A stretch of DNA of 64,000 nucleotides from Candidatus Cloacimonadales bacterium (lineage in GTDB: Bacteria; Cloacimonadota; Cloacimonadia; Cloacimonadales; JAIOQZ01), in NCBI GenBank assembly GCA_963665815.1, contig OY762463.1, positions 1,600,001 through 1,664,000 of the forward strand, given 5' to 3'. Shown here one piece after another: positions 10,040-58,881 of this stretch (position 1 is its first letter; each line of letters opens with the position of its first letter). A program made the position numbers and the translations under genes. The notes below the pieces were generated by a model. The model was not told the origin of the DNA. It saw nothing but the letters and a program-made list of their open reading frames with translations, and ran no database searches.

Positions 10040-10274
10040 ATAATTTCCTTCGTTCGAATTCAGTCTTTCATTATTCATAATACGGTCTTCATGTCAAACT
10101 AATAATTGAAATTTTCTTCTTTTCCAAAAAAAAGTAAAAATTCAAAAAAAACATTGCCAATAAACGCATTGTGATTATTTTTTGAAAAAAGTATATATAA
10201 TAATGTTCACTCAGATCTCTCATACATAATTTACAATTTAATACGATCTGAATCACAAGTCAAAAGGAGTCACA

Positions 10275-24437: not shown

Positions 24438-27400
24438 ATGAAAAATATTAAATCATTGAATGTATTTTATGTTCTTGTTATTCTACTCACTACACTTAAT
24501 CTGTATGGAGTAACATCTGAGATTTCAATCATTAAAACCAACTTTCATCATGAAAACGATTTCTCTATACCTGAGCTGAATGAAAATCAATATATAGATT
24601 TCGAACAAGGTAATCCTTCCATACCTGTGCAGACTTACTGGTTTCTGCTTGAGCAGAACCAAAAAATTTCACATGCGGATGTGAAAGTACTATCCTCTTT
24701 TTCCGAAGAACTGGAATACCCTCTATTGCCTGTGCAAAAACAGTCTCCTATCAGCCTGAAAACTCAAGTTGAGGTTACCAGAGCTTACAACACAGACGTT
24801 TTTCCCGGGAATATTATTTACAGAACAGGCAACGGTTATTCAGGAAGCCGGAATATCGGATTTGTGTCTTTTTATACAGGAAGTTATAATACTGAGACTT
24901 CGGAGTATACCGGATATAATTCTATCCGGATCGATATTGAAACAGAATACTGTAGAACAGAGACATTGCCTGCAAATCTTGTTAGTGATGATGTAACAAA
25001 AATGCTCACAGGTATTGAAGTTTCACAGAACACTTCTCTGGATCACCTGATTATTACTGAAAGACAGTTTACTGATGAATTTCAAAGACTAATTGAATGG
25101 CGAAAATCCCAGGGATACAATTCCAGAATAGCAACAATAGAAAATATTTATTATAATGTACCGGGATCAGACCTTCAGGAAAAAATCAGATCATTTATTA
25201 AATACACAGTCCAAAACAGTAATATAGATTACGTTACTCTTGCCGGTGATACTGATGCTATACCGCATAGAGCTGCATTTGCTTTTGATGCTACTACAAG
25301 TTCAAGTTCGGCTAATGACATACCATGTGATATGTATTACTCATGTCTTGATGGTGACTGGAATGCGAATGGGAATGATGTTTACGGTGAAGATGATGAT
25401 AATGTTGACTATTTCCCTGATGTTTATGTAAGCCGTTTATCAGTTACTGCTTCAGATGAAGTTGAAAACTACATTACTAAGATGATCAACTATGAAAAAG
25501 GAGAGTCTGATAACTACGAAAAGGCGGCGGGATTTTCTATGGAATTATGGTCGGAATCTAATAGTGAATCTGCTCAGCAATATATATACGACAGGTATTT
25601 CCCTCAGAATTTCCAAATTGACTTCCACTATGGGGATAACAACACTGACGAAAATTTCTTTAATACTTTGAATTCATCATATAATATTACTCAACATACA
25701 GGACATGCGAATAAAAATATACTGGCTCTCGGAGATGGTCATTATGTCAGAAACAATGATATTGATATGCTGAACAATGATTTTTGCGGTATGTTTTACA
25801 CTATAGGCTGCTGGTCTGCAGCTATTGACTATGACTCTATAGGAGAAAAGTTCATTACTACGCCAAACAGTTTCAGCGGATATATTGGCAACACAAGATA
25901 TGGCTGGGGAGCTCCCGCATCTCCTGCTTTCGGCTTTTCCGAGTTCTATCAGAAAGCTTTCTTCCGCAACATGTTTGAAAGAGATATCAGGAGAATTGCT
26001 CAGGGTAATGCATTACAGAAACTTGATTTCATCCCATATATGACAGGCACATCCGTGTACAAATGGGTAGCTTATGAGTTAATAGCACTTGGTGATGCTC
26101 CATATAAACTGTATCTGAATAATCCTTCTGAACTGAATGTCACACAAAACCTTGATAGAGACCAGATTGTATTGCATGTTACAGACAATTCAGAACCGGT
26201 TGCAGGCTGCTATGCCGTGCATGGCTACAATTCCGGTTATACTGACTACAATGGAGATATTTCATTCCCTCGTTCTGCAAGTTCTGACTCAATTTCTGTA
26301 TACCATGAAAACTATCAACCATATTCAGAACATGTTGACTCTTCCAATACAGAAGCATTGTTTGAGATTGACTCAAACATACCAGAATTTATATACAGCC
26401 AGGACTCATTAACATTCACTACTACTATTACTAATAACTCGACTGAAGATAAAGCTTTAGATATAGTATACATCTTTGATTCAAACAATGTAGACATTAC
26501 AGCAACATCTTTTCACACTAACGTGAACTCCGGGACACAATCAATGATGGGATTTACAAACGTTAAACTCGCCGAAAACAGTGCTGTCAAACCGGGAGAC
26601 ACAATAACCTTTGACCAGATTCTATATGACAATGACGTAGAGCTGATAAGAAAAAGATACAGCCTTCTCATTAAGGGTTCCCATGTAAGCTGTATACAAT
26701 TCCGTCAGAATTTCAACAGCAGAACGCTTAATTTCAGAGTCGGACTAACCGGTACAGATGCGTTGACAAATCTGGATGTAACCCTTTCTGACAATGACTA
26801 TGTCCATTTCAATCAGAATCAGTGGACTGTAACAGATTTGCAGAGAAGCTATATTGATCTGCAAACCACATTTGATCCCACAATAATTACCCGAGATCAA
26901 AGCAGTGTATACTTAACATTTAATTTTTCTAATAATACGGAAACTTACTCGCTGACACAGGAGATTATTGTTGCTGACGATAACAATATTGTTTATGAAG
27001 ACTTTGAAAGCCTTATAGACTGGCAGCAGGATATTGCCTGGGAGCAAGTGCAGACATTTGCTTATTCTGGAAACTACAGCCTTTCCTGCCATCCTGCAGT
27101 TACAAGCCTACAGATTATTGAAACTCCTGCTTTGACTTTCAGCAATGGTATGGATTTAAGCTTTCAGTATAAATATCAGATGCCCATGTATGGAACTCAT
27201 GGCGTTTTCGTAACTCTTGAGACAGAATCCAGATGCGATACTCTTATCTTCCTTGGAGCAGGAGGAGCTCTTGGAGGAGAAGAAGAGGAATTTGCAATCA
27301 TAGAGTCTGACTGGGCAGAATACAGAATTGATATAAATGACTTCCTGATTGATGATCTGTCAGAAGGAGAAATATTCAGTATAAAACTGGGATTTAATTA

Positions 27401-27800
27401 TGCTGATTCACTTGATGGTTTTGATTACATTTCAGATCCTGAAAACGGTGTTTTCATTGATGAATTCCAATTGGGTTCTACTCCGCAGATTGTTTCAGAA
27501 GACAACCATGAAATTGTAAATAATAATGGAATAAATGTTACATTTAATAATCCTGCATTAATCAGTTCCGGAAATTGCAAATTCAGTATTTCTACTGAAA
27601 AAGCATTGGAATCACTCTCAATTTACAACATTAAAGGTCAGAAAGTGAAATCATGGAAACAAGCTGAACTTGAGGAAAGAAAAAATATTTTCTGGAATTA
27701 TCAAGATAATTCAAGTAAGATCGTTGCTAATGGAGTATACTTCATAAGGGCAAAATCAGCTAATTGTAATAAAACCATGAAGATGGTTATTATCAAATAA
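24438..27800 (+). CDS. Secreted C25 (gingipain-like) cysteine peptidase with C-terminal FlgD-Ig/T9SS-like sorting domain
   Basis: Propeptide 'GNPSIPV', YVTLAGD, CDMYYS.LDG.W, candidate catalytic HTGH and IGC; CTD 'IYNIKGQKVK...GVYFI...KMVIIK'. Confidence 0.88.
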   Translation: MKNIKSLNVFYVLVILLTTLNLYGVTSEISIIKTNFHHENDFSIPELNENQYIDFEQGNPSIPVQTYWFLLEQNQKISHADVKVLSSFSEELEYPLLPVQKQSPISLKTQVEVTRAYNTDVFPGNIIYRTGNGYSGSRNIGFVSFYTGSYNTETSEYTGYNSIRIDIETEYCRTETLPANLVSDDVTKMLTGIEVSQNTSLDHLIITERQFTDEFQRLIEWRKSQGYNSRIATIENIYYNVPGSDLQEKIRSFIKYTVQNSNIDYVTLAGDTDAIPHRAAFAFDATTSSSSANDIPCDMYYSCLDGDWNANGNDVYGEDDDNVDYFPDVYVSRLSVTASDEVENYITKMINYEKGESDNYEKAAGFSMELWSESNSESAQQYIYDRYFPQNFQIDFHYGDNNTDENFFNTLNSSYNITQHTGHANKNILALGDGHYVRNNDIDMLNNDFCGMFYTIGCWSAAIDYDSIGEKFITTPNSFSGYIGNTRYGWGAPASPAFGFSEFYQKAFFRNMFERDIRRIAQGNALQKLDFIPYMTGTSVYKWVAYELIALGDAPYKLYLNNPSELNVTQNLDRDQIVLHVTDNSEPVAGCYAVHGYNSGYTDYNGDISFPRSASSDSISVYHENYQPYSEHVDSSNTEALFEIDSNIPEFIYSQDSLTFTTTITNNSTEDKALDIVYIFDSNNVDITATSFHTNVNSGTQSMMGFTNVKLAENSAVKPGDTITFDQILYDNDVELIRKRYSLLIKGSHVSCIQFRQNFNSRTLNFRVGLTGTDALTNLDVTLSDNDYVHFNQNQWTVTDLQRSYIDLQTTFDPTIITRDQSSVYLTFNFSNNTETYSLTQEIIVADDNNIVYEDFESLIDWQQDIAWEQVQTFAYSGNYSLSCHPAVTSLQIIETPALTFSNGMDLSFQYKYQMPMYGTHGVFVTLETESRCDTLIFLGAGGALGGEEEEFAIIESDWAEYRIDINDFLIDDLSEGEIFSIKLGFNYADSLDGFDYISDPENGVFIDEFQLGSTPQIVSEDNHEIVNNNGINVTFNNPALISSGNCKFSISTEKALESLSIYNIKGQKVKSWKQAELEERKNIFWNYQDNSSKIVANGVYFIRAKSANCNKTMKMVIIK

Positions 27801-28512: not shown

Positions 28513-29205
28513 TCAGTTCTGTTCAATTTCAACATTTCCGGTTTCACATATAATATCAAGATATATTGTACTTAGACTATTACCGAACTTCTCATTAACA
28601 AGAGCATCACCCTTCTCAAAAAATCCCGGAGCTGCAAGCCTGAACATGGATCCTGTTGTTGCAATCTGTACACCTGTCTTTGACGGCACAGATACCTTAG
28701 TATATCCAACACTATTGTGAAGAGTAATAAAAACATCATCGTTAATCATCTCACCAAGAACAAGATTAACCGATCCTACTGCACAGAAAATATCAAGTTT
28801 TCGGAGATCGACATCCTGTAGATTCAGCTTTAAATCTCCGGAATTACATTCAATTTTTATATCTGTAGATTTTCCATTCGGAATACTGATATTCCATTGA
28901 CGCAAGTTCTTTTCCCTGTCAGGAGCTTTCAAACTGAATACACCATCAGCAAAATTTACTTCTGCTGAATCAGCCTGATTGTACCTGTATAGAACAGCAG
29001 AAAGACTATCCTGATCACTGCCGGTAATATTAAGAATTCCTTTATCCAGTTTAAGCTCAACTTTCTTTTTGCCTGTCTCCTGTTCAAAGGCAACAGTTTG
29101 TTTTACCATCTTATCCAGTTCAGCTTCATCAAGTTTTATCTCAATATCGCAGCTGACGAGGAACATTATAGCAATAAGAACAAGTAACAGACGTTTCAGA
29201 CTCAC
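28513..29205 (-). CDS. Putative lipoprotein, toast-rack/LiaF-like beta-solenoid
   Basis: GTG start overlapping the upstream TGA; lipobox LVSC; repeated 'G.L.L.L' strands. Confidence 0.65.
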   Translation of the reverse strand: MSLKRLLLVLIAIMFLVSCDIEIKLDEAELDKMVKQTVAFEQETGKKKVELKLDKGILNITGSDQDSLSAVLYRYNQADSAEVNFADGVFSLKAPDREKNLRQWNISIPNGKSTDIKIECNSGDLKLNLQDVDLRKLDIFCAVGSVNLVLGEMINDDVFITLHNSVGYTKVSVPSKTGVQIATTGSMFRLAAPGFFEKGDALVNEKFGNSLSTIYLDIICETGNVEIEQN

Positions 29206-30107
29206 GATTTGATTTCTCTTAGTTTGTACAATAATGTAGCTGCTCCATAGAAAACACCGGAAACAGCAAGAATGAGCAGTTTCTTCACAGCAAAAATTGC
29301 CTTCCATTCCCGTTTGATTATTTCAGGTATGATTCCTACAACATCAGGAGATAAAGGTTGTGAATTATTATTACCAATATGAATTGGAAAATCTGTAAAA
29401 CTCATTCCCTGAGATACCATTTCCCAGAATCCGGATAATGGTGATATAAGTTTCCAGGAGAAAATAAATTCAAGAACGGAGAAAACTATATCAATTACTA
29501 ACAATATCCCAAGTCCTTTCATGAATGAATAATTCTTGAAGATTGATGAACAGAGAAATGCAAAACTTCCAAGGAATATTGTAGCATTTATCAATGATAA
29601 ATATGATTGAGCCATTCCTACGAATCCCATCTTCCAGTAAATCGTTTTATAGAAAGGATATAAGCTGAGATTAAGTAGAAAATAGTTCACCAGAACTACT
29701 GCAAAAGTAATTACCATAAAACCGAAAATAGAAACAATATATTTTGATAACGTATTAAACCATACTGACACAGGTTGCGTTCTGTAGAAAAGCTCGCACT
29801 TTAATTTAATGTCCAGATTCAGGGCATCTCCACTGACAAACCCAATGAAAATCATGCTGAAAATGGAAATCATAAAAGCTGATACATAGTGCATGAAATA
29901 GAAAAACGGACCACCAATTTCTGCTGAGTTCTCAACAGTAATCTGAGACATGATAATTGCAGGATTAAATGAATCCCCTCTTACTTTCGCTATCAACATT
30001 CCAAGAAGAATCAACACCCAGGTACCTGCTACCAGCATTGCAGGAGCATACATACTTTTTTTAGAAATAATCAGATCTTTTTTTATAAGATAAAGCAGTT
30101 TATTCAT
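29202..30107 (-). CDS. ABC-2 type permease
   Basis: About six TM segments, 'FYRTQPVS....LSK'; follows the ABC ATPase. Confidence 0.8.
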   Translation of the reverse strand: MNKLLYLIKKDLIISKKSMYAPAMLVAGTWVLILLGMLIAKVRGDSFNPAIIMSQITVENSAEIGGPFFYFMHYVSAFMISIFSMIFIGFVSGDALNLDIKLKCELFYRTQPVSVWFNTLSKYIVSIFGFMVITFAVVLVNYFLLNLSLYPFYKTIYWKMGFVGMAQSYLSLINATIFLGSFAFLCSSIFKNYSFMKGLGILLVIDIVFSVLEFIFSWKLISPLSGFWEMVSQGMSFTDFPIHIGNNNSQPLSPDVVGIIPEIIKREWKAIFAVKKLLILAVSGVFYGAATLLYKLREIKS

Positions 30108-30948
30108 CCTGATCCCCTCCAATTTCTGCAAGGAACAGATCAGATAACTGAGGTCTCTTATATTCTGCACCTTCAATTTTTACATCAGATTTAACAATTG
30201 CATGAATTTTTCCCAGAAGATAAGTGACTAACCTTGGTTCTGCTGCAAGTAACTCACCCTTTTTCTCCACTGGCACAATAATGCTTGTGTATTTATCCTT
30301 AAGAACTTCAATATCTTCATAAAGTACAATTTCACCTTCATGAATAAAGATAATATCCTGTAGAATATCTTCAACCTCTTCTACCTGGTGGGTTGAGATC
30401 ATGATTGTTCGTTCTTCATCATAAAACTCACCGAGAATAGTGTTAAAAAACTGTTTTCTGAACACAATATCCAGTCCGAGAGTTGGTTCATCCAACATAA
30501 GAAATTCAACATCAAGAGAAAGAGTTATTAATAAATAGAGCTTTGTCTTCATACCCTTGGAAAGATGTTTGACTTTCTTGTTGAGAGGTATATTGCTTTT
30601 GGTCAGTAGATTCAGAGCTGTTGATTCTTTCCAGTTAGGATTCATCTTAGACACAAATTCCATTGTCTGCTTAACTGTGAGTCTGTCATCCAGACCATTA
30701 ACATCAGGAATGAATGCAACTTTCTCAAAAATCTTGTGATCTCCCGATTTAAGGATATCACCGTAATATTTAACTTCTCCGGTATAATTGAGAAACCCGA
30801 GAATTGATCTCATAAGTGTGGATTTACCTGCTCCGTTCTTTCCCAACAGTCCAATAATTCTTCCACGTGGTATCTTAAGATTTACATTTTTCAGTGCTTC
30901 GAATTTACCGTAACTCTTTGATAAATTTGTTATTTCTAAAAAACTCAT
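30100..30948 (-). CDS. ABC transporter ATP-binding protein (YtrB-like)
   Basis: GKNGAGKST, LSKGM, LDEPT, STH. Confidence 0.93.
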   Translation of the reverse strand: MSFLEITNLSKSYGKFEALKNVNLKIPRGRIIGLLGKNGAGKSTLMRSILGFLNYTGEVKYYGDILKSGDHKIFEKVAFIPDVNGLDDRLTVKQTMEFVSKMNPNWKESTALNLLTKSNIPLNKKVKHLSKGMKTKLYLLITLSLDVEFLMLDEPTLGLDIVFRKQFFNTILGEFYDEERTIMISTHQVEEVEDILQDIIFIHEGEIVLYEDIEVLKDKYTSIIVPVEKKGELLAAEPRLVTYLLGKIHAIVKSDVKIEGAEYKRPQLSDLFLAEIGGDQDE

Positions 30949-30950
30949 TT

Positions 30951-31334
30951 TTACTCCACATTAGATGCTTGTTTGTTAAATTCCTGATCAATTAACTCTA
31001 TCAATTCATTCCTGTTCAGATCAAGCGTAATCGCTTTTTTTACGAGTTCACTGACCTCTTCATCCCGAAACTGTTTACCTCGAATTTTAAGAAGTATGCG
31101 TTTTGCATCCGAGGATACATAAAAACCTATTCCCCGCTTCTTGAAAATGATTCCGGCGTCAGTTAATTCGCTGAATGCATTGGAAACAGTCTGAGGGTTG
31201 ATCTTGTACTGCTGAGCCAGAGTACGTATAGACGGAACTATACTGTTCTCAGGCAGAGCTCCGCTGAGGATTGACTTCTCAATCTCTTCTTTGAGCTGCA
31301 GATAAATTGGTATCGAACTATCGAATACTTTCAC
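30951..31334 (-). CDS. GntR family regulator, YtrA subfamily
   Basis: PIYLQL, PSIRTLA, INPQTV, RGIG; short C-terminal domain; precedes ABC genes. Confidence 0.92.
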   Translation of the reverse strand: MKVFDSSIPIYLQLKEEIEKSILSGALPENSIVPSIRTLAQQYKINPQTVSNAFSELTDAGIIFKKRGIGFYVSSDAKRILLKIRGKQFRDEEVSELVKKAITLDLNRNELIELIDQEFNKQASNVE

Positions 31335-31605: not shown

Positions 31606-31842
31606 CTACAGTTCCCAGCCTTTGAGAAAGTCAATGATCTCCACAACAATGTCATTGTAATCCGGAGATGCATCAACTTGAATAAGCTTTTCATTATCTA
31701 CTGTTACTGTAGAATAATTGCAGAACCCCTCGAATGCTTCGATAATGTATCCGAAGTACACAAGTTCCTCTGATGGGACTTTGACGATATATCTGTCTAT
31801 ATCATCAACAAGCTTTTCGTGCGATTTAATCGTAATATTCAT
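31606..31842 (-). CDS. DUF4911-like small protein
   Basis: 'LVYFGYIIEAFEGFCNYST'; coupled to the lon stop. Confidence 0.65.
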   Translation of the reverse strand: MNITIKSHEKLVDDIDRYIVKVPSEELVYFGYIIEAFEGFCNYSTVTVDNEKLIQVDASPDYNDIVVEIIDFLKGWEL

Positions 31843-34272: not shown

Positions 34273-35301
34273 TTACTTGTTTACTGACTTCTCAGAGAAA
34301 GTTAACTTAACACCTTCCCCACAGTTTCTGCACATTTTTATTGCAGATCTGTTCGTCAGAATGGTATTCCTCATTTTCTGGAATTTTTCGTTCTTAAAAA
34401 TAGATTTTACGGAATTTGTTTTTACATTGCCAACAGGATAATCAATATCTTTGTCGAAACAACAGACTGCCATTTCCCCATTCCAGTTTATCACAGGCTG
34501 ATCCCAGATTCTGCGGCAGCGATTCTTAATACCAAACTTCAACTCAAAATCATCACCTGAAATCTTGTAACGTCTGTATTTGGGGTTTTCCGGTAGAAAA
34601 TTCTTGATGTCATCTTTTTCATAAATCTGAACTGTCTTCAACGAAAGTGAATCTACTCCCAATTCCTTAGCCAGATTACGAATTGACTCTATTTCATGTT
34701 CATTATGTTTCATTACAATAAACTGCCAGAGAATTTTAGGGAATATTGACTTCTTCTTCTTCTTTGCTTCAACAAGCTTCCTGACATTCTCTTTAACCTT
34801 ATCAATTTCACCATTGATGCGGTACTGATTATATGTTTCCTGAGAAGCTCCATCAAGAGATACAATAAGTCTATCAAGTCCTGAATCCACTATTTCCTCA
34901 GCAGGTGGCAGAATGTTAGCATTCGTGGAAACCAATGTATACAGACGCTTAGAGTGTGCATATTTGATCATCTTCACCATGTCTTTATTCAGGAAAGGTT
35001 CTCCCTGATTCCACAAAATCAGCATAAAAGCATATTCGGAAACTTCATCTATCACCTTTTTATACAATTCAAAATCCATGTATCCCTTTGCCCTTTTGAG
35101 GGTTCCGTTTCCGGAAGGACACATAGGACACCGAAGATTACAAATATTGGTCGGTTCAATCATTATAACACCGGGCATTCCCCATACGTATGCCTTTCGG
35201 GTTAAAATCGAAAAACCGTAAGATGCATATTTAAGCAGAGAATTGAACAATCTTTTCCAGGTGAAAATTCTAAAAAAAACATTTATCTTTCTTTTAAGCA
35301 T
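34273..35301 (-). CDS. Radical SAM protein with SPASM/twitch domain
   Basis: CNLRCPMC, GEP, C-terminal C..CC.D...C..C. Confidence 0.9.
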   Translation of the reverse strand: MLKRKINVFFRIFTWKRLFNSLLKYASYGFSILTRKAYVWGMPGVIMIEPTNICNLRCPMCPSGNGTLKRAKGYMDFELYKKVIDEVSEYAFMLILWNQGEPFLNKDMVKMIKYAHSKRLYTLVSTNANILPPAEEIVDSGLDRLIVSLDGASQETYNQYRINGEIDKVKENVRKLVEAKKKKKSIFPKILWQFIVMKHNEHEIESIRNLAKELGVDSLSLKTVQIYEKDDIKNFLPENPKYRRYKISGDDFELKFGIKNRCRRIWDQPVINWNGEMAVCCFDKDIDYPVGNVKTNSVKSIFKNEKFQKMRNTILTNRSAIKMCRNCGEGVKLTFSEKSVNK

Positions 35302-38280: not shown

Positions 38281-38970
38281 TTATTTTGAGTAATCTCTGA
38301 CTCCGAATATTGCTGAGCCAATCCTGATTATGTTAGCACCTTCTTCAATTGCAATTTCGAAATCCCCGCTCATACCCATCGATAAGTATTTGAACTTAAC
38401 TCCTGGAAGTTTTTCTGCTTCATCATAAAGCTTTTTCAGCTTTCTAAAACATTCCCTGATAATATCTTCATCTGAGATAAACATCCCGATTGTCATCAGA
38501 CCACGAATTCTGATATTTGAGAAACAAGCTGCCTGCTTCAGGAATTCTATTGTTTCATTCGGTTCTATTCCTGATTTTGACGCTTCTCCTGATGTATTTA
38601 CCTGTACCAGTATATCCTGTACAATTCCCATTTCCTGAGCAACATTATTCAGCTTTTTTATTGTAGATAACTTATCGAGAGAATGAATCAGTGTTGGCTT
38701 AAGCTCCATCAGTTTTCTTATTTTGTTAGACTGTAAATGTCCTATGAAATGAAACTCATCTATTTCATCCTGAAGTTCCGGGATCTTTGTCAGAGACTCC
38801 TGAATTTTATTCTCAGCTATGCAGGTTAACCCATTTTTTATACCTTCTCTTATAGTCTCAACATCATGCGTTTTAGTTACTGCAAGCAGTAAAATTTCAT
38901 CTGCTGATCTGTTGCAGGCGTCTGCTGCATCAGCAATTTTTTTCCTTATAAAATCAATTCTTTCTTTCAT
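38281..38970 (-). CDS. yggS: PLP homeostasis protein YggS
   Basis: LAVTKT, ENKIQE, HFIGHLQSNK, LSMGMSGD, RIGSAIFG. Confidence 0.96.
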   Translation of the reverse strand: MKERIDFIRKKIADAADACNRSADEILLLAVTKTHDVETIREGIKNGLTCIAENKIQESLTKIPELQDEIDEFHFIGHLQSNKIRKLMELKPTLIHSLDKLSTIKKLNNVAQEMGIVQDILVQVNTSGEASKSGIEPNETIEFLKQAACFSNIRIRGLMTIGMFISDEDIIRECFRKLKKLYDEAEKLPGVKFKYLSMGMSGDFEIAIEEGANIIRIGSAIFGVRDYSK

Positions 38971-39393
38971 TTATATAACTCCACGAGATCTTTGCATAAT
39001 TGGAGTAGTTGACTCGATATTATTTATCCATAGTGAGACTGTTATGTTATAATATTCCATAAGCTCATCTATAGCTTTTAAGTTTACTTTATTATATCAA
39101 AACTGTTTGATTCTGCTATTATGCAAAGCTATCTCCACTTCAAAAAAGTAAAAAGCAGGCGTTCAGACTATGTGTCAAGCTTAATTCATTGATTAGTTAA
39201 TATACACATAAAAATCATGGAATGCAATTGTATTAACGTAATAATATTCTAGAGTGTTACATCACATTTACAGATGTATTACTAATGCCGGCATATTAAA
39301 ACTTGATGAATTGATAATGTCGGCTGTTTTATTATGACAATTTTATTAAATACTCAGTTCAGAACTCATGAAGCAAGCTTAAAACAAACATGT

Positions 39394-40809
39394 TCAATCC
39401 TTTGTAACCTGATTCTTAACATAATATTCCTCAAGTACATGCTGTCCAACTTGCTTAAGTAAAAAAATGTAAACCTTTAGAAGATTTTCAATCTGCTTTC
39501 TGAATTTTAAACATTCATAAATATTGTTTTTAAAACTTCCATCTGAGGCAAAATTGATATAACAGGAAGAACATAAATATCTTGCCCAGCAATTAGCACA
39601 TGTTTTCTCTCTGAACTCAATCCATTTATTAACAATAACTGACATTCCCTGATAATCCAGTCCATCTTCAACAGAACCTATTTTAAAATCATGATCTATC
39701 TTCTCACAAATGTAATATGATCCCTCAGATGAAACAAAAAGCTTCTGATTTCCAGGAACACATGTTTTATAGCTTATGTACTCACCATACTCACGCTTAT
39801 GAATAAAAGAAAGTGAATCCATAAAAATATGATTATCCAAAGACATATCTCCGCTTTTCAGACCTTGCACTAAGTCAAAGATTTCGGAGTTACCTTTTAC
39901 ACTATCCATGTCACTGTTAAGAAAATACTCGGTATAATACTGCTTTCTCTCATCATGTGTTGGATGCATTCTGGATATTCTCAGATTCAATTTAAGATTC
40001 TTTCGTAAATCAACAAGTTTGTTGTATTCATCTAAATTTGTAACAGTAGCCAACAATAGAATATTCTGACTATGCTTATCGATTTTACTTTTGATTAACT
40101 CAATATTTCGCTCTACTATATTGTATGTGAATGTTCCGTTAGCATGGACTCTATGTTTATCATGAATCTCTTTCAACCCATCAAAACTTATTGAAATGTT
40201 AAATGCATGCTTTACTAAATATTCAATGTTCTCTGAATCAAGTAGATATCCATTTGTTGTTATTGCATATCTAATGTTAAGATTTAAAGTGCTGCAATAC
40301 TGTACAATCTTTTCTATCAGATCCATATTAAGTAAAGGTTCTCCCCCATAAAATCCTACAAGAAGGTCTTTTCTACCGTTCTTTAAGCAAATCTCGTATA
40401 CTTTTTGAATCGCAGCAATCGCTATTTCATAGGTCATTACTTTGCTGGAATGTTTTCTCAATTTATTTTCTTCGTAAGAACCACCATAAATACAATAAGA
40501 ACATCTGAAATTGCAGTTTTCTGTAATACAAAGAGTTATCGCTTCAGGGCAAATACTCTCAGCATTTACTTCAGGTTTAAAGTACACTGCATCCTTATCA
40601 TCGATACTACTTAACAGAGTTTGAAAATCATTGTAAATTTCTCTCGCATTCCTGAATATCCCTATATATCTTTCGACATAGTCTTCCCCAGACATTGATA
40701 TCAAGCTATTCAATGTTTTATACACCACTTCATTAATTCTGACCATTTGTCCTGTTACATCAATATAAATGTAAAACTCATTCTCAAACTTGAATTTCTT
40801 AATATTCAT
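39394..40809 (-). CDS. Radical SAM/SPASM peptide maturase (CcpM / GG-Bacteroidales-like) with putative N-terminal RRE
   Basis: CNFRCSYC, FYGGEPLLN, TTNG, SFDG, SPASM 'CVPG..KLFV...G.YYICEK...CANCWARYLCSSC...C'; about 90-aa N-terminal extension. Confidence 0.88.
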   Translation of the reverse strand: MNIKKFKFENEFYIYIDVTGQMVRINEVVYKTLNSLISMSGEDYVERYIGIFRNAREIYNDFQTLLSSIDDKDAVYFKPEVNAESICPEAITLCITENCNFRCSYCIYGGSYEENKLRKHSSKVMTYEIAIAAIQKVYEICLKNGRKDLLVGFYGGEPLLNMDLIEKIVQYCSTLNLNIRYAITTNGYLLDSENIEYLVKHAFNISISFDGLKEIHDKHRVHANGTFTYNIVERNIELIKSKIDKHSQNILLLATVTNLDEYNKLVDLRKNLKLNLRISRMHPTHDERKQYYTEYFLNSDMDSVKGNSEIFDLVQGLKSGDMSLDNHIFMDSLSFIHKREYGEYISYKTCVPGNQKLFVSSEGSYYICEKIDHDFKIGSVEDGLDYQGMSVIVNKWIEFREKTCANCWARYLCSSCYINFASDGSFKNNIYECLKFRKQIENLLKVYIFLLKQVGQHVLEEYYVKNQVTKD

Positions 40810-41789
40810 TACCGGCTCAACCTGAATTTATAATAATTCTGTGAACCAGAATCTTGAATATGAACAAATTTGTCATCCACAATCATTGTATTCATAACAG
40901 TATAAATATTATCGGGAATCTTCCAGAATTGAATAAGATTAAAATTACTGTCATATTTACAGAGATACTCTCGAATCTCGAAAGCAGCTTTTATCTGCGA
41001 AGAACTTGAGTTTTTGTAATCTATTTTTGCATCAGTATTTCCCATAAACGTATGAATCACAAATATCTCATTATCAGAAGAATCGATGTTCAACACATAA
41101 GACTTCTCTGTTGGAAGATTGTCTGAAAACAAATTCTCAACTGAAATTAGCTCGTTTTTAACTTCATCATACATATAGATGTTTGATTTGTACTGAGTAA
41201 ATGCTAAATAATATTTTCCATTAGATTTCAACAATGAATTTTCTCTTTCCGTTCTTTCTATACCTATGTCATCGAATAACTTACTAAGGTCAATCCTTTG
41301 CTTTACTGAATCATTTTCTATGTTGAAGTACTTGCAGCCTGGGAGAGCATAGAATTGGGAGAAAGACACTTTGCCTTCATCCAGATATAAATCTGAAGGC
41401 AATACAGCTTTCATTGAAGAAAGAAATTCACCTTCTATGCTAAAGGTTGAGATTCTATTACTACCAATATCCGATACCAGTAAATTATCTCCAACAACAA
41501 GTATTTTCCCATTTAAAGACAATTCTCCGGGACCTTTACCTTCTTTACCAATCTTGTGAATAAATGAATAATCCTCTGAACTATATACATATACTGAGTG
41601 AGATGTATCATAGAAGAAAATCTTCCCGTCACTATATTCTACATCGAAAAATCCCATATTCATTTCACAATTTTCCTGCCATCCTAATGAATCTGCAACG
41701 GTTAAAGAACCTTCTTTCAATCGTGAGCTACATCCGAAAATTAACAGAGATAACAAAATAGATAAGACAATAATTCTTTCTTTAAACAT
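40809..41789 (-). CDS. Lipoprotein, 6-bladed beta-propeller (TolB/NHL-like)
   Basis: Lipobox IFGC, 'IGKEGKGPGEL' motif; TAATG overlap with the rSAM start. Confidence 0.8.
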   Translation of the reverse strand: MFKERIIVLSILLSLLIFGCSSRLKEGSLTVADSLGWQENCEMNMGFFDVEYSDGKIFFYDTSHSVYVYSSEDYSFIHKIGKEGKGPGELSLNGKILVVGDNLLVSDIGSNRISTFSIEGEFLSSMKAVLPSDLYLDEGKVSFSQFYALPGCKYFNIENDSVKQRIDLSKLFDDIGIERTERENSLLKSNGKYYLAFTQYKSNIYMYDEVKNELISVENLFSDNLPTEKSYVLNIDSSDNEIFVIHTFMGNTDAKIDYKNSSSSQIKAAFEIREYLCKYDSNFNLIQFWKIPDNIYTVMNTMIVDDKFVHIQDSGSQNYYKFRLSR

Positions 41790-41807
41790 ATAAACTCCAA
41801 TTCATAG

Positions 41808-42048
41808 TGAGGGAATTATCTATTATTTATTGTTATTTAGAATTTGAAGATTGACCACCAAGAAGGTCGTCAATGTAAGCATTTGAAGAGTGAACACTTG
41901 ATGCATGTGCAACGTCGCATTCACAGACTGATTTTCTGCCTTTAACTTCGTTTTCATCACTTGTTGTAACAGGGCTAGAAACTACATCATAAGTACTTGT
42001 CATACATTTCTCCTTAGATATTATAATTAGTTGTTGATAATTCCCTCA
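41808..42048. repeat. Perfect 13-bp inverted repeat bracketing the precursor gene
   Basis: TGAGGGAATTATC at 41808-41820 and GATAATTCCCTCA at 42036-42048. Confidence 0.85.
41833..42003 (-). CDS. Putative RiPP precursor peptide, 56 aa: MTSTYDVVSSPVTTSDENEVKGRKSVCECDVAHASSVHSSNAYIDDLLGGQSSNSK
   Basis: Manually translated and absent from the ORF track. SD AAGGAG 6 nt before ATG; TAA at 41833-41835; same strand and directly upstream of propeller and rSAM genes. Confidence 0.8.
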   Translation of the reverse strand: MTSTYDVVSSPVTTSDENEVKGRKSVCECDVAHASSVHSSNAYIDDLLGGQSSNSK

Positions 42049-42100
42049 TTTCCATACATAATTGCCTTTTGAGCATGTATGACAATTATCAAACACCATA

Positions 42101-42133
42101 AGACAATAAAAAGTATTTTTTTTTACATGTCAA
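42101..42133 (-). promoter_or_regulatory. Putative promoter for the precursor operon
   Basis: TTGACA (42133-42128) followed by an AT-rich -10-like region (TTTATTGTCT). Confidence 0.4.
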
Positions 42134-42362
42134 TTTTATTTTCTTCAGAATATTTCTTAATGGTAAATTTAATTTTCCCCTTTCATTTTCATAGATTTTA
42201 AAAACAAGCATGATATTTTACATGAAAAATATCAGGACTGGAATTACGGTACCCTAATTAAAGAATAATTACCTCAAATGTATATTTCACACTTATAGAA
42301 GCAAATAAAACTACACTAACTCAAAAACTCGTATTACTGAAGTAGAGTAGATAAAATCCCAC

Positions 42363-42400
42363 AACAGGAGTTCAGAAATTTTTCGGACTCCTGTTTTTTT
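42363..42400. terminator. Intrinsic terminator-like hairpin separating the FGase gene from the peptide operon
   Basis: aacaggagttc...ggactcctgttttttt. The long U-tail is on the plus strand, so termination of the minus-strand FGase transcript is less certain. Confidence 0.6.
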
Positions 42401-42409
42401 CTCGAAAAC

Positions 42410-43177
42410 TTACCCAAAATGCTTTGTAATTGCCTGAACACCTTTCTGCAGGATTTCTCTCAGTTGTAATTGTTTTTCGGAATCCACTTCTCCTGTCCAT
42501 TCATCCATAAAAGTTTTCTTAAACTCAATTGCCAGACACATTGCGTTATCGGGATAAAAATGATTAATCCAACGAGGGAAATATCCGCCGGGGAACTTCA
42601 CATTTACCCTGGCATCAATCTTATGGTCATCATAAGTCTCTTCCAGCATAGCTTGCTGGAATTCTTTCACGATAGGAAACCACTTCTCATCAAGATTGCT
42701 TGTTCCAATAATTATTTCAGGGTTCTTTTCAGGATCATCATATTCCTGCCCCGGTCCTAACCTGTGATGATTATAAGAATGTATATCCAGCACCAGAAAT
42801 TTACCGAACCTTTTCCTCATCTCATCCAGATGATACTTGATTCCTTTATAGAAATCGTCATATATCGCAAGGCTTGCCTGTACCTGTTCTTCTGAGGGTT
42901 GGACTTTTCTGACAGTCATACCCCAGGCATCCTCCGGTTTTATATAGACAGCTCTGTCTCGAGGTCTGTTTAGATCGGTTTCAAAACGACTGAACTCGGC
43001 AATAACCGTATTCTTGCATATTTCTGTAAAAAAAGCTGTAAACGGATCTTCTTCTCTGAGCTGATCAGCATCGGAAATACCCAGATTAGCTTTTGTTAAT
43101 TCGTTGAGTTTATGGCCGTTATGCACGGCAGTACATATAAAGGGTTCCTGATATGTAAATGTTGATATTGCAGACAT
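42410..43177 (-). CDS. N-formylglutamate amidohydrolase family protein
   Basis: AVHNGH, REEDPFT, SRF.TDLNR, DIHSYNH, FPGG, IEFKK. Confidence 0.88.
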   Translation of the reverse strand: MSAISTFTYQEPFICTAVHNGHKLNELTKANLGISDADQLREEDPFTAFFTEICKNTVIAEFSRFETDLNRPRDRAVYIKPEDAWGMTVRKVQPSEEQVQASLAIYDDFYKGIKYHLDEMRKRFGKFLVLDIHSYNHHRLGPGQEYDDPEKNPEIIIGTSNLDEKWFPIVKEFQQAMLEETYDDHKIDARVNVKFPGGYFPRWINHFYPDNAMCLAIEFKKTFMDEWTGEVDSEKQLQLREILQKGVQAITKHFG

Positions 43178-43649: not shown

Positions 43650-44399
43650 CTAATCAATATCCATTACTTCCACAGCAAATTGAGTATGACCATTATGGCA
43701 ATACTTGTCTATTAAGTATACTTTATCGCCCTGTTGATTTGCATATGCATAAACATAATCCGGATATTCTACCATTCCTGATTCCTGCCCTGTCTTAACC
43801 AGAAATTTACTTATAGGTTCACTTTCAATTAAATCATATGTATGATAATCATAAACATAGAAACCGGGACGAAAGTATCCTCCGAAACTTAGACTGGTAA
43901 TTAATATTTTACCGACATCCCCAGTACAGTCTAAGCTATATATACCCGGATTACTTATCATACCAACCTGTTGCATATCTGTTTCTTCTGAATCTGATAA
44001 GCTTATCACGTATCCACCAGGTAAAATAGCTTTTTCCCCGGACTCAGGAATATACATTTTGTTCAAGTCAGAGGGAAACTCACCATGATACTGCCATTCA
44101 TATAGGAATTTTGCAGGACCATTACTGATGTCATATTTATTCAGGTGTCGAGGAGAATATATTGTACTGAATGAGTAAATACTGTTTCCCGAAGGATGAA
44201 TATACAGATTTGATCTGGTTCTGAATTCAAAATCACTCAAAACAACCTGTTCACTTGCCAGGTCTATGGACATTAACAAATCATCCTCTCCATCATCTGC
44301 AGAAGCGTAAGCCCATCCATTTGAGGACATTACAAGCCTCCATGGTTTTAAGGGCAATGTATAATCATTTAATACAAACCATTTATTAACATGTCCACT
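43650..44399 (-). pseudogene. Probable 5'-truncated beta-propeller protein remnant
   Basis: Frame is open back to 44399 with no ATG or SD at the start and no signal peptide; propeller-like 'SSNGWAY', 'IHPSGNSIY', 'KYDISNG...YHG'. Confidence 0.5.
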
Positions 44400-44832: not shown

Positions 44833-44908
44833 TGGGGTGGCTGATGGGACTCGAACCCACAACGCCTGGAACCACAATCCAGTGCTCTACCATTGAACTA
44901 CAACCACC
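44833..44908 (-). tRNA. tRNA-His (GUG)
   Basis: GGTGGTTGTAGTTCAATGGTAGAGCACTGGATTGTGGTTCCAG...GGTTCGAGTCCC...CCA, including G-1. Confidence 0.95.
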
Positions 44909-44917
44909 ATTGAAAAA

Positions 44918-44994
<77 letters not shown>

Positions 44995-45035
44995 GCTTAT
45001 CAAAAAAAACTGCTCGCCTTTAACGACAAGCTCTA

Positions 45036-45112
45036 TGGTAGCGGCGCAGGGACTCGAACCCCGGACACTCGGATTATGATTCCGATGCTCTAACCAACTG
45101 AGCTACGCCGCC
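45036..45112 (-). tRNA. tRNA-Met (CAU), probably elongator
   Basis: GGCGGCGTAGCTCAGTTGGTTAGAGCATCGGAATCATAATCCGA...ACCA; Ile2 identity not fully excluded. Confidence 0.9.
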
Positions 45113-45126
45113 GCGTATTTAATAAA

Positions 45127-45203
<77 letters not shown>

Positions 45204-47323: not shown

Positions 47324-47584
47324 ATGGCTCATAAAAAAGGTGTTGGTAGTAGTAAAAACGGTCGGGACAGTAATCCGCAATATCTTGGTGTCAAAAGATA
47401 TGATGGCGAATACGTACTTGCTGGAAATATCCTTGTAAGACAAAGAGGATCCAAAATAAAGCAAGGTAAAAACGTTGGTGTTGGAAGAGATTATACCATT
47501 TTCAGTTTAATCAACGGATACGTAAAGTTTGAAACTAAAGCAGCTGGCAGAAAATTTGCCAATGTGTATCCCGATAAAGTATAA
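47324..47584 (+). CDS. rpmA: 50S ribosomal protein L27
   Basis: [16 protein letters not shown]. Confidence 0.98.
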
Positions 47585-51612: not shown

Positions 51613-53553
51613 TCACTTCAGCATTATACACTTTTTAAGGATTGATTCTCCTTTTGCAGGTGTAATCTTATAGAAGTACACTCCTGAACCTACGCCATTA
51701 CCATTATTATCATCTCCATTCCAAATAACTTCATGTGGTCCTTTTCTCATTGATTTATTGAGAAGATTCTTAACCTTTTGTCCCTTGATATTGTAGATAC
51801 TTACATTGATATTCTGTTCTTCGGTAATTGAGAAACTTATTGTCGTTCTGGGGTTAAATGGATTAGGATAGTTACAGACATTATTAACAAGTTCAAGCGT
51901 AACATCATCGTTATCTATAGCACCATCCAGGGCTATTGCATCCAGAATAACTATATCATTATCGTAGCCTATTTTGTGCCAGGCAATTCGGATATGCTCA
52001 CCGGTGTAAGAAGCCAAATCTACTGCAACGTGTTCCCAGTCAAGAGTACTGAGGTTGTCTTCTTCGGCATGCCAGACTTCAGTCCAGTTATCACCATCGT
52101 CAGTTGTAACTTTTACGGTGTAGTCTGTATGATCCATTAATCCTGAATTATAGCATGTCCAGAATTCCAGATACCCGTTCAGTCGTTCATCAATAATAAG
52201 AGTTGGAGAAATCAGCCATTCATCCTGATAATCACTTAAATCCACGTAAGGGCAAAATGCTGAGTATATATTGAAAGGATCGTATTCAGAGAATGAATAC
52301 CCCTGAATGTTACCAGGTTGCCAGGTGAAACTGTTATGAGTGTTATCCAACATCCACCATTTAGGCGGGAACCTTACCTGATCGAAATCCTGTCTGAAGT
52401 TAGTGTTCACTATTCTCGGAACAGCAATGATTCTTGAAATTTCTACCGTATCAATTGTTGAATAAAGTGTAATTCTGATCTCTTCCTGAGAATTCTGCTG
52501 AGGATTGGAAGCGTAGATAGCCCATTTACAACCACTTATTTCACCAGTGGAAATCATTTCAGGGCTCATAGTTTGAGTAGCAGTGGAATTAGCAAATCTC
52601 AAATTCTCAGACAATTCCATAACGGCATACATTGTATCAGCCGGCACATTATGATTATTCCTTGCAAACATCTGAACTGTTACAGACGCAGGAAGAATGT
52701 CTTCGTAGTTCTGTTCGAAATTATCCAACGTTGAAACAGAGAGATCAATACTATCATTTAAAGTAGTAATATTCCCGAGTCCAATATACTGCCCGAATGT
52801 ATTTTTATCATCTACATCATAAGTTTCAACATTCCATCTCATAAACAGTCCGGGAGAAGTGATAGGTACAACCTGATCCGTTTCCATATCCCAGACAACA
52901 TTAGAAAGAGTATCTGAGTTACCGAAAATCACCATACTTGGAGCAGTTGCCTCAAGACCGTTGGTGATTGTCTGAAATACTGTACCATCCGTAATGATAT
53001 CATCATTTTCGTACATCTGTATAACCTGAGGAATCACATGACCGGAAAGTTCAAGAGTAGAACTGATCTGTTGCCCGTTCCCCCAGAACGATCTCGTCCC
53101 GGTACCGGGACATTGCGGAGCATAAAAATGAGCAATTCCTATATCATGTATAATCTGGTCCTGATTATCAATCTCATATCTTAGAGTAACAAAATGCGAG
53201 TTAATGAAATCTTGAAACTCCAGAATCTGTTTGATTTCCACATCCCCAATCTCATATACAGTTTCTATCCGATCCGAATATTCGCTCACACTATAGGGAA
53301 TCAATGCAGTAACGTTTGTCAATGCATCGGAATTGGAGTAAAAATTATCATCGAGAGATACAATAAAATGTGTATTAAATGTATCAGGATATCCGGAAAT
53401 AACAGAGTTACCTGAGGCATCCCCTATGTTAAACATACCCGTTGTATCATCTACAACAACCGTGAAGTGCGAATTATTGATTGAATAATCTTCTGCTGCC
53501 AGACTACAGAGCAGACCTAATACAGCAACAAGGATAAATACCGGCTTATACAT
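51613..53553 (-). CDS. Secreted protein with cleaved-adhesin/choice-of-anchor-J-like domain and FlgD-Ig/T9SS-like CTD
   Basis: Signal peptide, 'QDEWLISP', 'DLASYTG..IRIAW', 'NYPNPFNPRTTISF...GVYFYKI...KKCIMLK'. Confidence 0.85.
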   Translation of the reverse strand: MYKPVFILVAVLGLLCSLAAEDYSINNSHFTVVVDDTTGMFNIGDASGNSVISGYPDTFNTHFIVSLDDNFYSNSDALTNVTALIPYSVSEYSDRIETVYEIGDVEIKQILEFQDFINSHFVTLRYEIDNQDQIIHDIGIAHFYAPQCPGTGTRSFWGNGQQISSTLELSGHVIPQVIQMYENDDIITDGTVFQTITNGLEATAPSMVIFGNSDTLSNVVWDMETDQVVPITSPGLFMRWNVETYDVDDKNTFGQYIGLGNITTLNDSIDLSVSTLDNFEQNYEDILPASVTVQMFARNNHNVPADTMYAVMELSENLRFANSTATQTMSPEMISTGEISGCKWAIYASNPQQNSQEEIRITLYSTIDTVEISRIIAVPRIVNTNFRQDFDQVRFPPKWWMLDNTHNSFTWQPGNIQGYSFSEYDPFNIYSAFCPYVDLSDYQDEWLISPTLIIDERLNGYLEFWTCYNSGLMDHTDYTVKVTTDDGDNWTEVWHAEEDNLSTLDWEHVAVDLASYTGEHIRIAWHKIGYDNDIVILDAIALDGAIDNDDVTLELVNNVCNYPNPFNPRTTISFSITEEQNINVSIYNIKGQKVKNLLNKSMRKGPHEVIWNGDDNNGNGVGSGVYFYKITPAKGESILKKCIMLK

Positions 53554-58216: not shown

Positions 58217-58840
58217 ATGGACGAAGTAATCGGACAAGAATTAGAGCAGAGTCCTGAGGAGAAACTTCAGGCATTATTTAGTCTCAAGGCAAAACTTGAG
58301 GATGATTTTGTAGCTATTGGACAGCTTTTGTCAGAAGTAAAAAGAAAAGGGCTGTATAAAATTAAAGGTTATAACAAATTTAAGGATTTCATCGAACAGG
58401 AATATAATATAGCCGGAACATTTGCCTCAAAGCTGATTTCCATATATGATCTTTTTGTTGATGAACTTGATATAGATGAATCTTCTCTGAAAAACATCGG
58501 TGTTGATAAACTTAACATGATAAAGCCGCTTGTTAAAAACAAAACTTATTCGGAATCAGAAGAATGGCTTAACAAAGCTAATGAGCTTTCTGCTACTGAT
58601 CTGAGAGAAGATATCAAGGAAGTTCGTAAGCAAACCCAATCCAAGTCAATGAAAGAAGTTCTCATTGACCAGTTCTACGAAACAATGGTAACATTCTTCA
58701 ATTGCTCCAGAAAAGAGCTAAATTATAAACTGGCTATTTATTTTCAGGACACTGACCTTGAACAGGTTAAGAATGAAATTAAAATAAAACAGAGAAATTA
58801 TGAAAAGGAAAGCGAAGGGGAGGGTCCCGGCATTAGTTGA
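58217..58840 (+). CDS. Hypothetical helical protein (DUF3102-like N-terminal motif)
   Basis: 'FVAIGQLLSEVK...LY...GY..F..FI...Y'; SD GAGGT. Confidence 0.55.
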   Translation: MDEVIGQELEQSPEEKLQALFSLKAKLEDDFVAIGQLLSEVKRKGLYKIKGYNKFKDFIEQEYNIAGTFASKLISIYDLFVDELDIDESSLKNIGVDKLNMIKPLVKNKTYSESEEWLNKANELSATDLREDIKEVRKQTQSKSMKEVLIDQFYETMVTFFNCSRKELNYKLAIYFQDTDLEQVKNEIKIKQRNYEKESEGEGPGIS

Positions 58841-58881
58841 TAAGAATCAGATCTAAACAAAAAACTGATAATGAGGTAAAA

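Follow-up and report, generated by a model that had tools for sequence, protein, structure and literature searches.

When a short open reading frame (ORF) precedes a lipoprotein gene and a radical S-adenosylmethionine (SAM) enzyme gene, the question arises whether its product is the substrate of the enzyme and, if so, what the enzyme does to it. Such a locus was analysed in contig OY762463.1 (assembly GCA_963665815.1), in the stretch of 64,000 nucleotides from position 1,600,001 to 1,664,000 of the forward strand. This whole stretch is called the window here, and positions are counted from its first letter. Three co-oriented minus-strand ORFs lie in it between a YggS-family gene (38281–38970) and an N-formylglutamate amidohydrolase-family gene (42410–43177). 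An earlier reading made from the letters alone (the sequence-only reading) had proposed them as a new system for a peptide synthesised by ribosomes and modified post-translationally (RiPP). Our answer, which we hold to be probable though far from certain, is that the three genes form one operon and that the 56-residue peptide is the substrate, with its leader docking on a putative RiPP recognition element (RRE) of the enzyme and one or two thioethers being formed from Cys25 and/or Cys27. The features on which the argument draws are as follows.

42010–42015, minus strand: Shine-Dalgarno sequence AAGGAG, 6 nt before the ATG of the 56-residue ORF (read directly)
41833–42003 (stop codon included), minus strand: candidate precursor peptide, 56 residues, ATG start (read directly)
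41938–42003, minus strand: proposed leader, residues 1–22, acidic and Ser/Thr-rich, ending in VKG (from a complex model and an alignment)
41836–41937, minus strand: proposed core, residues 23–56, with both Cys of the peptide (C25 and C27, in CECD) and GGQSS near the C-terminus
40809–41789, minus strand: lipoprotein with a DUF5128/NHL-type beta-propeller, 326 residues (PF17170, 30.6 bits)
39394–40809, minus strand: radical SAM/SPASM peptide maturase, 471 residues (PF04055, TIGR04085, likeness to CteB)
40609–40809, minus strand: RRE-like N-terminal domain of the maturase, residues 1–67 (predicted fold)
40492–40515, minus strand: CxxxCxxC motif of the maturase, C99, C103 and C106 (read directly; invariant in 117 aligned relatives)
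39490–39777, minus strand: SPASM domain of the maturase with seven Cys (350, 368, 404, 407, 413, 416 and 433), including CEKIDHDF (TIGR04085, 33.8 bits)

The peptide ORF with its translation, the AAGGAG sequence and the spacing of 43 nt to the propeller gene (41790–41832) were read directly and are as the sequence-only reading had described them. The propeller lipoprotein, the overlap of its stop codon with the ATG of the maturase as TAATG, the CxxxCxxC motif, the Cys-rich SPASM domain and an N-terminal extension of RRE size are present as well. Downstream of the maturase gene there is a gap of 423 nt, in which all ORFs have 29 residues or fewer, and then the YggS-family gene.

The first step of the answer concerns the enzyme. 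About 95 residues precede its first cluster motif. PF04055 matched with 65 bits (cut-off 29.5) and the SPASM model TIGR04085 with 33.8 bits (cut-off 27) over model positions 1–93 of 93, and the Pfam SPASM model PF13186 stayed under its cut-off of 21.5 with 16.4–17 bits. Across 117 aligned sequences the seven SPASM Cys are invariant or at least 90% conserved, and the GGEP motif is present. The structure predicted by AlphaFold2 (AF2) from these 117 sequences has a predicted local distance difference test (pLDDT) value of 88.8. In its N-terminal block (pLDDT 89–97), strands at residues 3–8, 11–16 and 21–25 are followed by helices at 27–31, 33–38, 41–48 and 55–67; this order of three strands and then helices over residues 1–67 suggests an RRE-like fold. 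No RRE or PqqD model in the profile and Pfam searches matched the N-terminus, where NF040492 gave a weak match of 16.8 bits. The best solved match was CteB both by sequence (5wgg, E 3.1e-28) and by fold (template modelling (TM) score 0.65–0.73), followed by an anaerobic sulfatase-maturating enzyme (anSME) and TigE.

Seventy-three NCBIfam models matched the enzyme. The best was CcpM (TIGR04068) with 226.7 bits over residues 3–454 (cut-off 500), and TIGR04148, the maturase model of the GG-Bacteroidales system, reached 155.9 bits (cut-off 300). The sequence-only reading had seen a likeness to both, and they are indeed the nearest named families. Of the three profile models that it had singled out, TIGR04085 is positive at its cut-off, and TIGR04068 and TIGR04148 are negative. 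The next matches were lachnocin, PapB, nif11-type, RumMC, ScfB-related, QhpD and SCIFF maturases, all sub-cut-off, and the enzyme missed the NCBIfam cut-offs of all the named peptide-maturase families. Among the 25 matches listed, peptide-modifying radical SAM/SPASM enzymes are the majority; the others are anaerobic sulfatase maturases, MoaA, prokaryotic viperin and TIGR04084. A defence role as prokaryotic viperin was rejected, the PADLOC match covering the radical SAM core only (residues 91–288, 62.8 bits) and NF038283 scoring 58.8 bits against a cut-off of 180.

In a search of 5.8 billion clusters, 534 relatives of the enzyme were found at E ≤ 1e-10, the best non-self match having 33% identity. 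TIGR04068 matches 22 of the 30 nearest at E ≤ 1e-75, and two of them pass its cut-off. A tree of 120 sequences was built with FastTree. It has the window enzyme, the listed non-self matches except P0012, P0037 and P0103 (116 of 119) and three TIGR04148 enzymes. In it the window enzyme groups with four unnamed proteins (P0003, P0008, P0011 and P0019; support 0.95–0.98) and has a long branch of 1.06 substitutions per site; the two CcpM members and the TIGR04148 enzymes are placed elsewhere, apart from this clade.

The second step concerns the 56-residue ORF. Its length alone says little because, when the 620-nt gap was shuffled 5000 times with dinucleotides preserved, 655 of the shuffled gaps (13%) had a minus-strand ORF of at least 56 residues. 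When a 5-mer Shine-Dalgarno match had to be in place as well, 24 of the 5000 shuffles qualified. The spacing of AAGGAG is ideal, and the genome uses Shine-Dalgarno sites: a 4-mer core stands before 34 of 53 gene starts of the window (8.5% of random 15-nt windows have one) and a 5-mer before 20 of 53 (2.2% of the random windows). Codon usage was scored as log-odds trained on the other window genes, with a gene cut-off of 90 residues. The peptide ORF obtained 0.249 per codon, where real-gene windows have a mean of 0.311 (sd 0.122, n = 312). This is at the 28th percentile of the real-gene windows and higher than all 312 windows in each of the three wrong frames. Among the 243 non-gene ORFs of at least 40 residues, the peptide ORF ranks sixth. 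The other ORFs in the two flanking gaps (21–45 residues) lack a clear Shine-Dalgarno sequence at the usual spacing and were rejected as substrates. The sequence-only reading had called the precursor unannotated; it does belong to no recognisable family, but its exact sequence is already in a public protein collection as a predicted protein of one contig of 3,963,599 bp. By its start signal and codon usage, the 56-residue ORF looks translated.

The top two of the 243 ranked ORFs lie in intergenic gaps, at 31606–31842 (minus strand, 78 residues, log-odds 0.297) and 47324–47584 (plus strand, 86 residues, 0.295). The latter follows the L21 gene and has a Shine-Dalgarno sequence. Both are probably real small genes.

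The third step is the pairing of peptide and enzyme. Their complex model scored 0.67, 0.67 and 0.65 in three runs, which agree in at least 62% of contacts, and three controls scored 0.00–0.01. In the model, peptide residues 1 and 3–13 are confidently placed in contact with enzyme residues 13, 19–26, 28–29, 57–58, 61–62 and 65, which belong to the third strand and the last helix of the RRE-like domain. Cys27 of the peptide touches residues 337–341 and the SPASM cysteines C350 and C416, and the interface also takes in residues 447–460. Binding of a leader on an RRE in this mode is known from solved complexes. The modelled pairing is specific to the peptide relative to the controls, and the model supports binding of the peptide by the enzyme. 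It also lends support to the division made in the sequence-only reading, in which the N-terminal half would be the leader and the Cys-bearing C-terminal half the core.

Related loci were obtained from a scan of genome contigs with the single maturase sequence and word patterns that included CEKIDHDF. Five loci (L001–L005) came from 61 pattern matches, and their maturases have 26–30% identity to the window enzyme. Those of L001, L002 and L003 pass TIGR04148 (513.3, 469.7 and 479.1 bits, respectively), and all three carry CEKIDHDF. The genes of L002 and L003 stand in the order precursor, DUF5128 lipoprotein, maturase and a second radical SAM-like protein; L001 is without the propeller and has its precursors elsewhere. 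A DUF5128 lipoprotein thus lies between precursor and maturase in two of the three intact TIGR04148 loci retrieved, which agrees with the earlier claim that propellers occur in such loci, and the view of the three window genes as a RiPP-like cassette is supported. The same layout is given for a cassette of B. fragilis (TIGR04149/PF14406 peptide, lipoprotein, radical SAM enzyme, TIGR04150) in the available part of PMC4573289.

Five precursors from the scanned loci (L001 8601–8855, L001 1130–1345, L002 4405–4650, L003 2828–3172 and L005 3079–3315) were aligned with the window peptide. The alignment is weak; it sets side by side a K/R-G at about residue 22–26, a CxC within 10 residues and then GG-x-S. 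The end of the leader at residue 22 would follow only from the KGG/RGG of these five precursors in the alignment. The five precursors also have a common leader and a CxCxC block, with G-(G/P)-S-S ... D-N-G-x-A-N downstream of the Cys region, and the GGQSS of the window peptide stands at a place comparable to the G-(G/P)-S-S. To our knowledge, no function has been assigned to this stretch.

The middle gene encodes a protein with an N-terminal signal and Cys20 in a lipobox-like position. PF17170 (DUF5128, '6-bladed beta-propeller') matched it with 30.6 bits (cut-off 22.9), and the corresponding scores are 80.1 bits in L002 and 65.0 bits in L003. Likeness to the L002 and L003 propellers was not significant by BLASTP and was rejected; the shared Pfam family alone holds. 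Its sequence matches the NHL domains of TRIM2/3/71 (best E 5.4e-12). The AF2 model is all-beta and matches the TRIM2 NHL domain (TM 0.53–0.62) and BamB, but these Foldseek matches show just 'a beta-propeller', because the alignment had four rows and pLDDT was 62.8. The look-alikes found with a language model in ESM Atlas are Bacteroidota clusters named '6-bladed beta-propeller' and 'BF3164 family lipoprotein' (score 0.95). One relative was found, P0124, with 53% identity over 99% coverage; it also begins with a signal and Cys, and the two proteins have three non-lipobox Cys in common.

On this basis the following course is proposed. The 56-residue product would be the substrate of the enzyme. 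Roughly residues 3–13 would add a further strand to the RRE-like domain (residues 1–67) on docking, and docking would feed the CECD core into the cleft that separates the SAM-cluster barrel from the seven-Cys SPASM domain. By analogy with CteB, other SCIFF maturases, RumMC, PapB and QhpD, the enzyme would take a hydrogen atom from an acceptor residue. The acceptor carbon would then be joined to the sulphur of Cys25 and/or Cys27, which would give one or two thioether rings of the sactionine or ranthionine type. The propeller would meet the peptide only after export, because a lipoprotein lies outside the cytoplasm, and may act there as a binding, processing or self-protection partner. A thioether appears the most likely product by analogy, since the nearest named and solved relatives form thioethers, the SPASM domain has seven Cys and the modelled Cys27 lies beside SPASM ligands. 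The leader/core boundary and any role of the propeller are likewise inferred.

Several observations weigh against this proposal. That the peptide is made and modified is deduced from sequence, and the cassette comes from a single genome with in silico support only. The peptide has two Cys in its 56 residues, few for the clade of the enzyme. A word-indexed search of the 5.8 billion clusters returned the peptide itself only. A full phmmer search of 1.84 billion representatives returned the peptide and P0122 (E 2.6e-7), which was rejected as a homologue: it is a eukaryotic immunoglobulin-like protein of 2775 residues with seven repeats over peptide residues 18–39, a chance match inflated by repeats. 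NCBIfam and Pfam gave no peptide family at E ≤ 1, ESM Atlas no usable match and tblastn against the window no second copy. A conservation test of the small gene, which would normally be the decisive one, is unavailable because there is no homologue. A hidden Markov model (HMM) of the five GG-Bacteroidales precursors put the peptide ORF first of 603 window ORFs; the score (E 0.37, 6.1 bits) is not significant and is equalled by 32 of 2000 composition-matched shuffles. This likeness is a lead and not family membership, and the peptide was rejected as a member of TIGR04149/PF14406. The complex score passed a mark that 58 of 80 solved complexes attain, as do 2 of 110 mismatched pairs; these counts are only rough because the analyst's own alignment was used. 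The pass may also partly reflect likeness to solved RRE–leader complexes such as CteB–CteA, whose binding mode is the same, and with a partner pLDDT of at least 45 (45–47) the peptide's own fold is uncertain. P0124 is without a counterpart of more than 33% identity in the search for enzyme relatives. Its organism therefore seems to be without the enzyme, which counts against an obligate partnership, and the propeller can apparently exist without the maturase. In addition, no peptidase or exporter adjoins the cassette among the NCBIfam matches of the window ORFs, and a sigma-70 scan was uninformative, with 21 promoter-like sites where 20.9 were expected.

Some of these points fit a different explanation, in which the enzyme is a real maturase with another substrate (a peptide from some other site of the 3.96-Mb genome, or a protein, for example the co-translated propeller) and the 56-residue ORF is an unrelated small protein or a chance frame. 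We consider it unlikely, although it is the alternative that survives best. A peptide without relatives is in keeping with it, as is the appearance of an ORF of this length in 13% of shuffles, but the length together with the Shine-Dalgarno sequence is rare in the same shuffles and the codon-usage rank of the ORF is high. QhpD- and anSME-type models match the enzyme (129.1 and 87.8 bits), yet among the NCBIfam matches in the window there is no sulfatase or amine dehydrogenase gene, and both roles were rejected on this ground. As for the propeller, its three non-lipobox Cys recur in P0124, and RRE-bearing radical SAM/SPASM enzymes can put thioethers on whole proteins according to the available part of PMC13692751. 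A lipoprotein exported by its signal is, however, ill suited as a target for an Fe-S enzyme of the cytoplasm, and the sole relative of the propeller appears without the enzyme. The complex model likewise speaks for the encoded peptide, as it sets the N-terminus on the RRE-like domain and Cys27 at SPASM Cys, where the controls give nothing comparable.

A second alternative keeps the peptide as the substrate and changes the chemistry, to a C–C cyclophane (triceptide-like, at the His/Tyr motifs), an epimerisation or another radical modification. This is improbable. The core offers several His, Tyr, Ser and Asp next to its only two Cys, and the HxsB, YhhB, XyeB, FxsB and DynA models all match the radical SAM core. 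At 101.6, 83.7, 66.4, 65.5 and 80.4 bits, however, they score below the thioether families (CcpM 226.7, PapB 142.3, RumMC 139 and SCIFF 127.4 bits), and the YhhB, XyeB and FxsB matches are mostly radical SAM core. With cut-offs of 370 for HxsB, 445 for YhhB and 450 for XyeB, the triceptide hint of the sequence-only reading found no support. The long branch and the small unnamed clade outside named families could accommodate other chemistry, but the best solved fold is that of the thioether-forming CteB and the model sets Cys27 beside the SPASM Cys ligands. The seven-Cys SPASM count is also noted for QhpD, CteB and Tte1186 in the available text of PMC10352776.

A bolder view sees in the cassette the founder of a new family of modified peptides. 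In it, a deep-branching RRE-fused CteB-like enzyme would install a cross-link new to the clade on a two-Cys core rich in His, Ser and Asp, and the propeller would be a dedicated extracytoplasmic partner, namely a receptor, chaperone or immunity protein. We regard this as a long shot; if true, it would give the first explanation of the propeller that recurs in Bacteroidales cassettes.

The base composition of the cassette was also considered. Its region (39100–42400) has a GC content of 0.30–0.33 against 0.34–0.38 in the downstream genes and 0.365 in the whole window, and the codon log-odds of the propeller (0.172) and maturase (0.200) genes are under the window mean of 0.311, which together hint at horizontal acquisition. 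That the cassette is an acquired remnant, no longer functional or expressed, is nevertheless very improbable: the composition, the tRNA genes 2.8 kb upstream, the near-orphan state of all three proteins and the lack of an adjoining exporter or peptidase agree with it, but none of the three frames is broken, start signals and translational coupling are in place, all invariant cluster ligands and GGEP are kept, and the enzyme folds confidently (pLDDT 88.8).

For the surroundings, 51 window ORFs were searched against NCBIfam at E ≤ 1e-8, the two cassette genes being excluded. Of the ORFs nearest the cassette, the YggS-family gene and a BatA-like protein had named matches and the others had none. 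One terminator-like site was found, on the opposite strand and outside the operon. In the window, Rfam found four tRNAs only, and none of its families matched the leader region of the operon. These tRNAs (44833–45203, minus strand) are His-GTG, Arg-TCT, Met-CAT and Met-CAT. Between them and the peptide gene sit the N-formylglutamate amidohydrolase-family gene and an orphan ORF of 235 residues (43650–44357) with no Pfam, NCBIfam or PADLOC match.

A second radical SAM/SPASM protein of 342 residues (PF04055 60.9 bits, PF13186 54.9 bits) is encoded at 34273–35301 on the minus strand, 4 kb downstream of the cassette and adjoining the BatA-like membrane protein. Its top NCBIfam match is a maturase of a tungsten-cofactor oxidoreductase (122.4 bits, cut-off 380). 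It was rejected as a cassette member, as it belongs to a different branch and four unrelated genes intervene. At 28513–31334 (minus strand), a GntR-type regulator and an ATP-binding cassette (ABC) ATPase have their best matches in PmtR/PmtA of phenol-soluble-modulin export (55.9 and 167.6 bits, both sub-cut-off) and are followed by two unnamed ORFs. These genes may specify a peptide exporter; nothing evident ties them to the cassette, from which they are about 8 kb away. At 63413–63994 (minus strand) an ABC exporter gene is cut off by the end of the window, so that its C-terminal ATPase part is inside; HlyB-type and NHLP bacteriocin-export peptidase/permease models are among its matches, and all of these score far under cut-off. 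A full-length response regulator PorX of the type IX secretion system (T9SS) is encoded at 58837–60441 (plus strand, 683.8 bits), and the protein encoded at 51613–53553 (minus strand) has a C-terminal region of T9SS type. These two place the host among the T9SS-bearing (Fibrobacteres–Chlorobi–Bacteroidetes-type) bacteria. Gene starts rich in Shine-Dalgarno sites are unusual for Bacteroidota proper. Further away, a Snf2-family helicase of 1072 residues (6860–10078, minus strand) has partial ZorD and DrmD defence-helicase matches far below cut-off, and an ORF of 1120 residues (24438–27800, plus strand) has no NCBIfam match.

Radical SAM/SPASM enzymes to which a leader-binding domain is fused have proved to be a source of new cross-links in peptides. 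Here a long-branch enzyme, with no relative above 33% identity, is paired with a candidate substrate that is without a homologue among 1.84 billion representatives. The cassette is small (three genes and a 56-residue candidate substrate) and would lend itself to a direct test by co-expression with mass spectrometry. It also connects two families that exist at the level of annotation and are uncharacterised, the CcpM-like enzymes and the precursor–lipoprotein–maturase cassettes of Bacteroidales. Such cassettes are very common in gut Bacteroidales. They are described in silico only in the available portions of the literature searched (PMC4573289, PMC10352776), in which no paper using 'GG-Bacteroidales', 'BF3164', 'pseudo-rSAM' or 'radical SAM peptide maturase' was found. 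If the role of the propeller were worked out here, it would carry over to the Bacteroidales loci. Thousands of radical SAM RiPP clusters are uncharacterised as yet, as stated in the available part of PMC10288494.

How the cassette stands to known systems can now be summarised. The GG-Bacteroidales system (TIGR04148/TIGR04149/PF14406/TIGR04150) has in common with it the order of precursor, DUF5128 lipoprotein and maturase, as in L002 and L003, the identical SPASM stretch CEKIDHDF, and a weakly aligned precursor layout of K/R-G, CxC and GG-x-S. The differences are considerable. Maturase identity is 28–29%, and the window enzyme stays far under the TIGR04148 cut-off. It has a fused RRE-like N-terminal domain of about 90 residues, which the TIGR04148 enzymes of 415–420 residues do not have. 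The window cassette is without the gene for a pseudo-radical SAM partner, its leader is unrelated to the conserved GG-Bacteroidales leader, its core has two Cys instead of three to seven, and the propellers share a Pfam family alone. In addition, the window host uses Shine-Dalgarno sites and may not be a member of the Bacteroidales.

The CcpM model fits the window enzyme end to end, N-terminal domain included, and scores highest, but at less than half its cut-off, and the enzyme groups with the four unnamed proteins rather than with the two passing CcpM members. The precursor of CcpM, to judge from the name of the model, is presumably Cys-rich, whereas the window peptide with its two Cys is not. 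The accessory genes of the TIGR04068 locus of Roseburia, namely TIGR04066, TIGR04069, a subtilase and an ABC transporter according to the available part of PMC4573289, are not among the NCBIfam matches of the window. CteB of the SCIFF (thermocellin) system (5wgg/5why) has a plan of RRE, radical SAM barrel and seven-Cys SPASM domain that the window enzyme appears to share, its putative RRE being a predicted fold, and the window model resembles it in placing the leader on the RRE-like domain and a core Cys near auxiliary-cluster ligands. In contrast, identity to CteB is 22%, the SCIFF model TIGR03974 gave 127.4 bits against a cut-off of 425, the peptide is unrelated to SCIFF peptides, and a propeller lipoprotein is co-encoded. 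SPASM maturases of the PapB/QhpD type join Cys to Asp or Glu side chains, according to the available part of PMC9413430, and the window core places Cys beside Glu and Asp (CECD). PapB (NF047865) scored 142.3 bits against 340 and QhpD (TIGR03906) 129.1 bits against 453, and amine dehydrogenase genes are absent from the window.

The proposal of a new RiPP system in the sequence-only reading was overstated, and the cassette is better described as a diverged variant of a known peptide-tailoring kind, credibly of the radical SAM-modified peptide systems. The action of RRE–radical SAM–SPASM enzymes on a small precursor is known already, and Bacteroidales are known to have the order of precursor, lipoprotein and maturase. 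The novelty lies in how the parts are combined: a CcpM-like, deep-branching enzyme with a fused RRE-like domain, a DUF5128 lipoprotein without a pseudo-radical SAM partner, a precursor without relatives, and a host that carries T9SS genes such as that of PorX yet uses Shine-Dalgarno sites.

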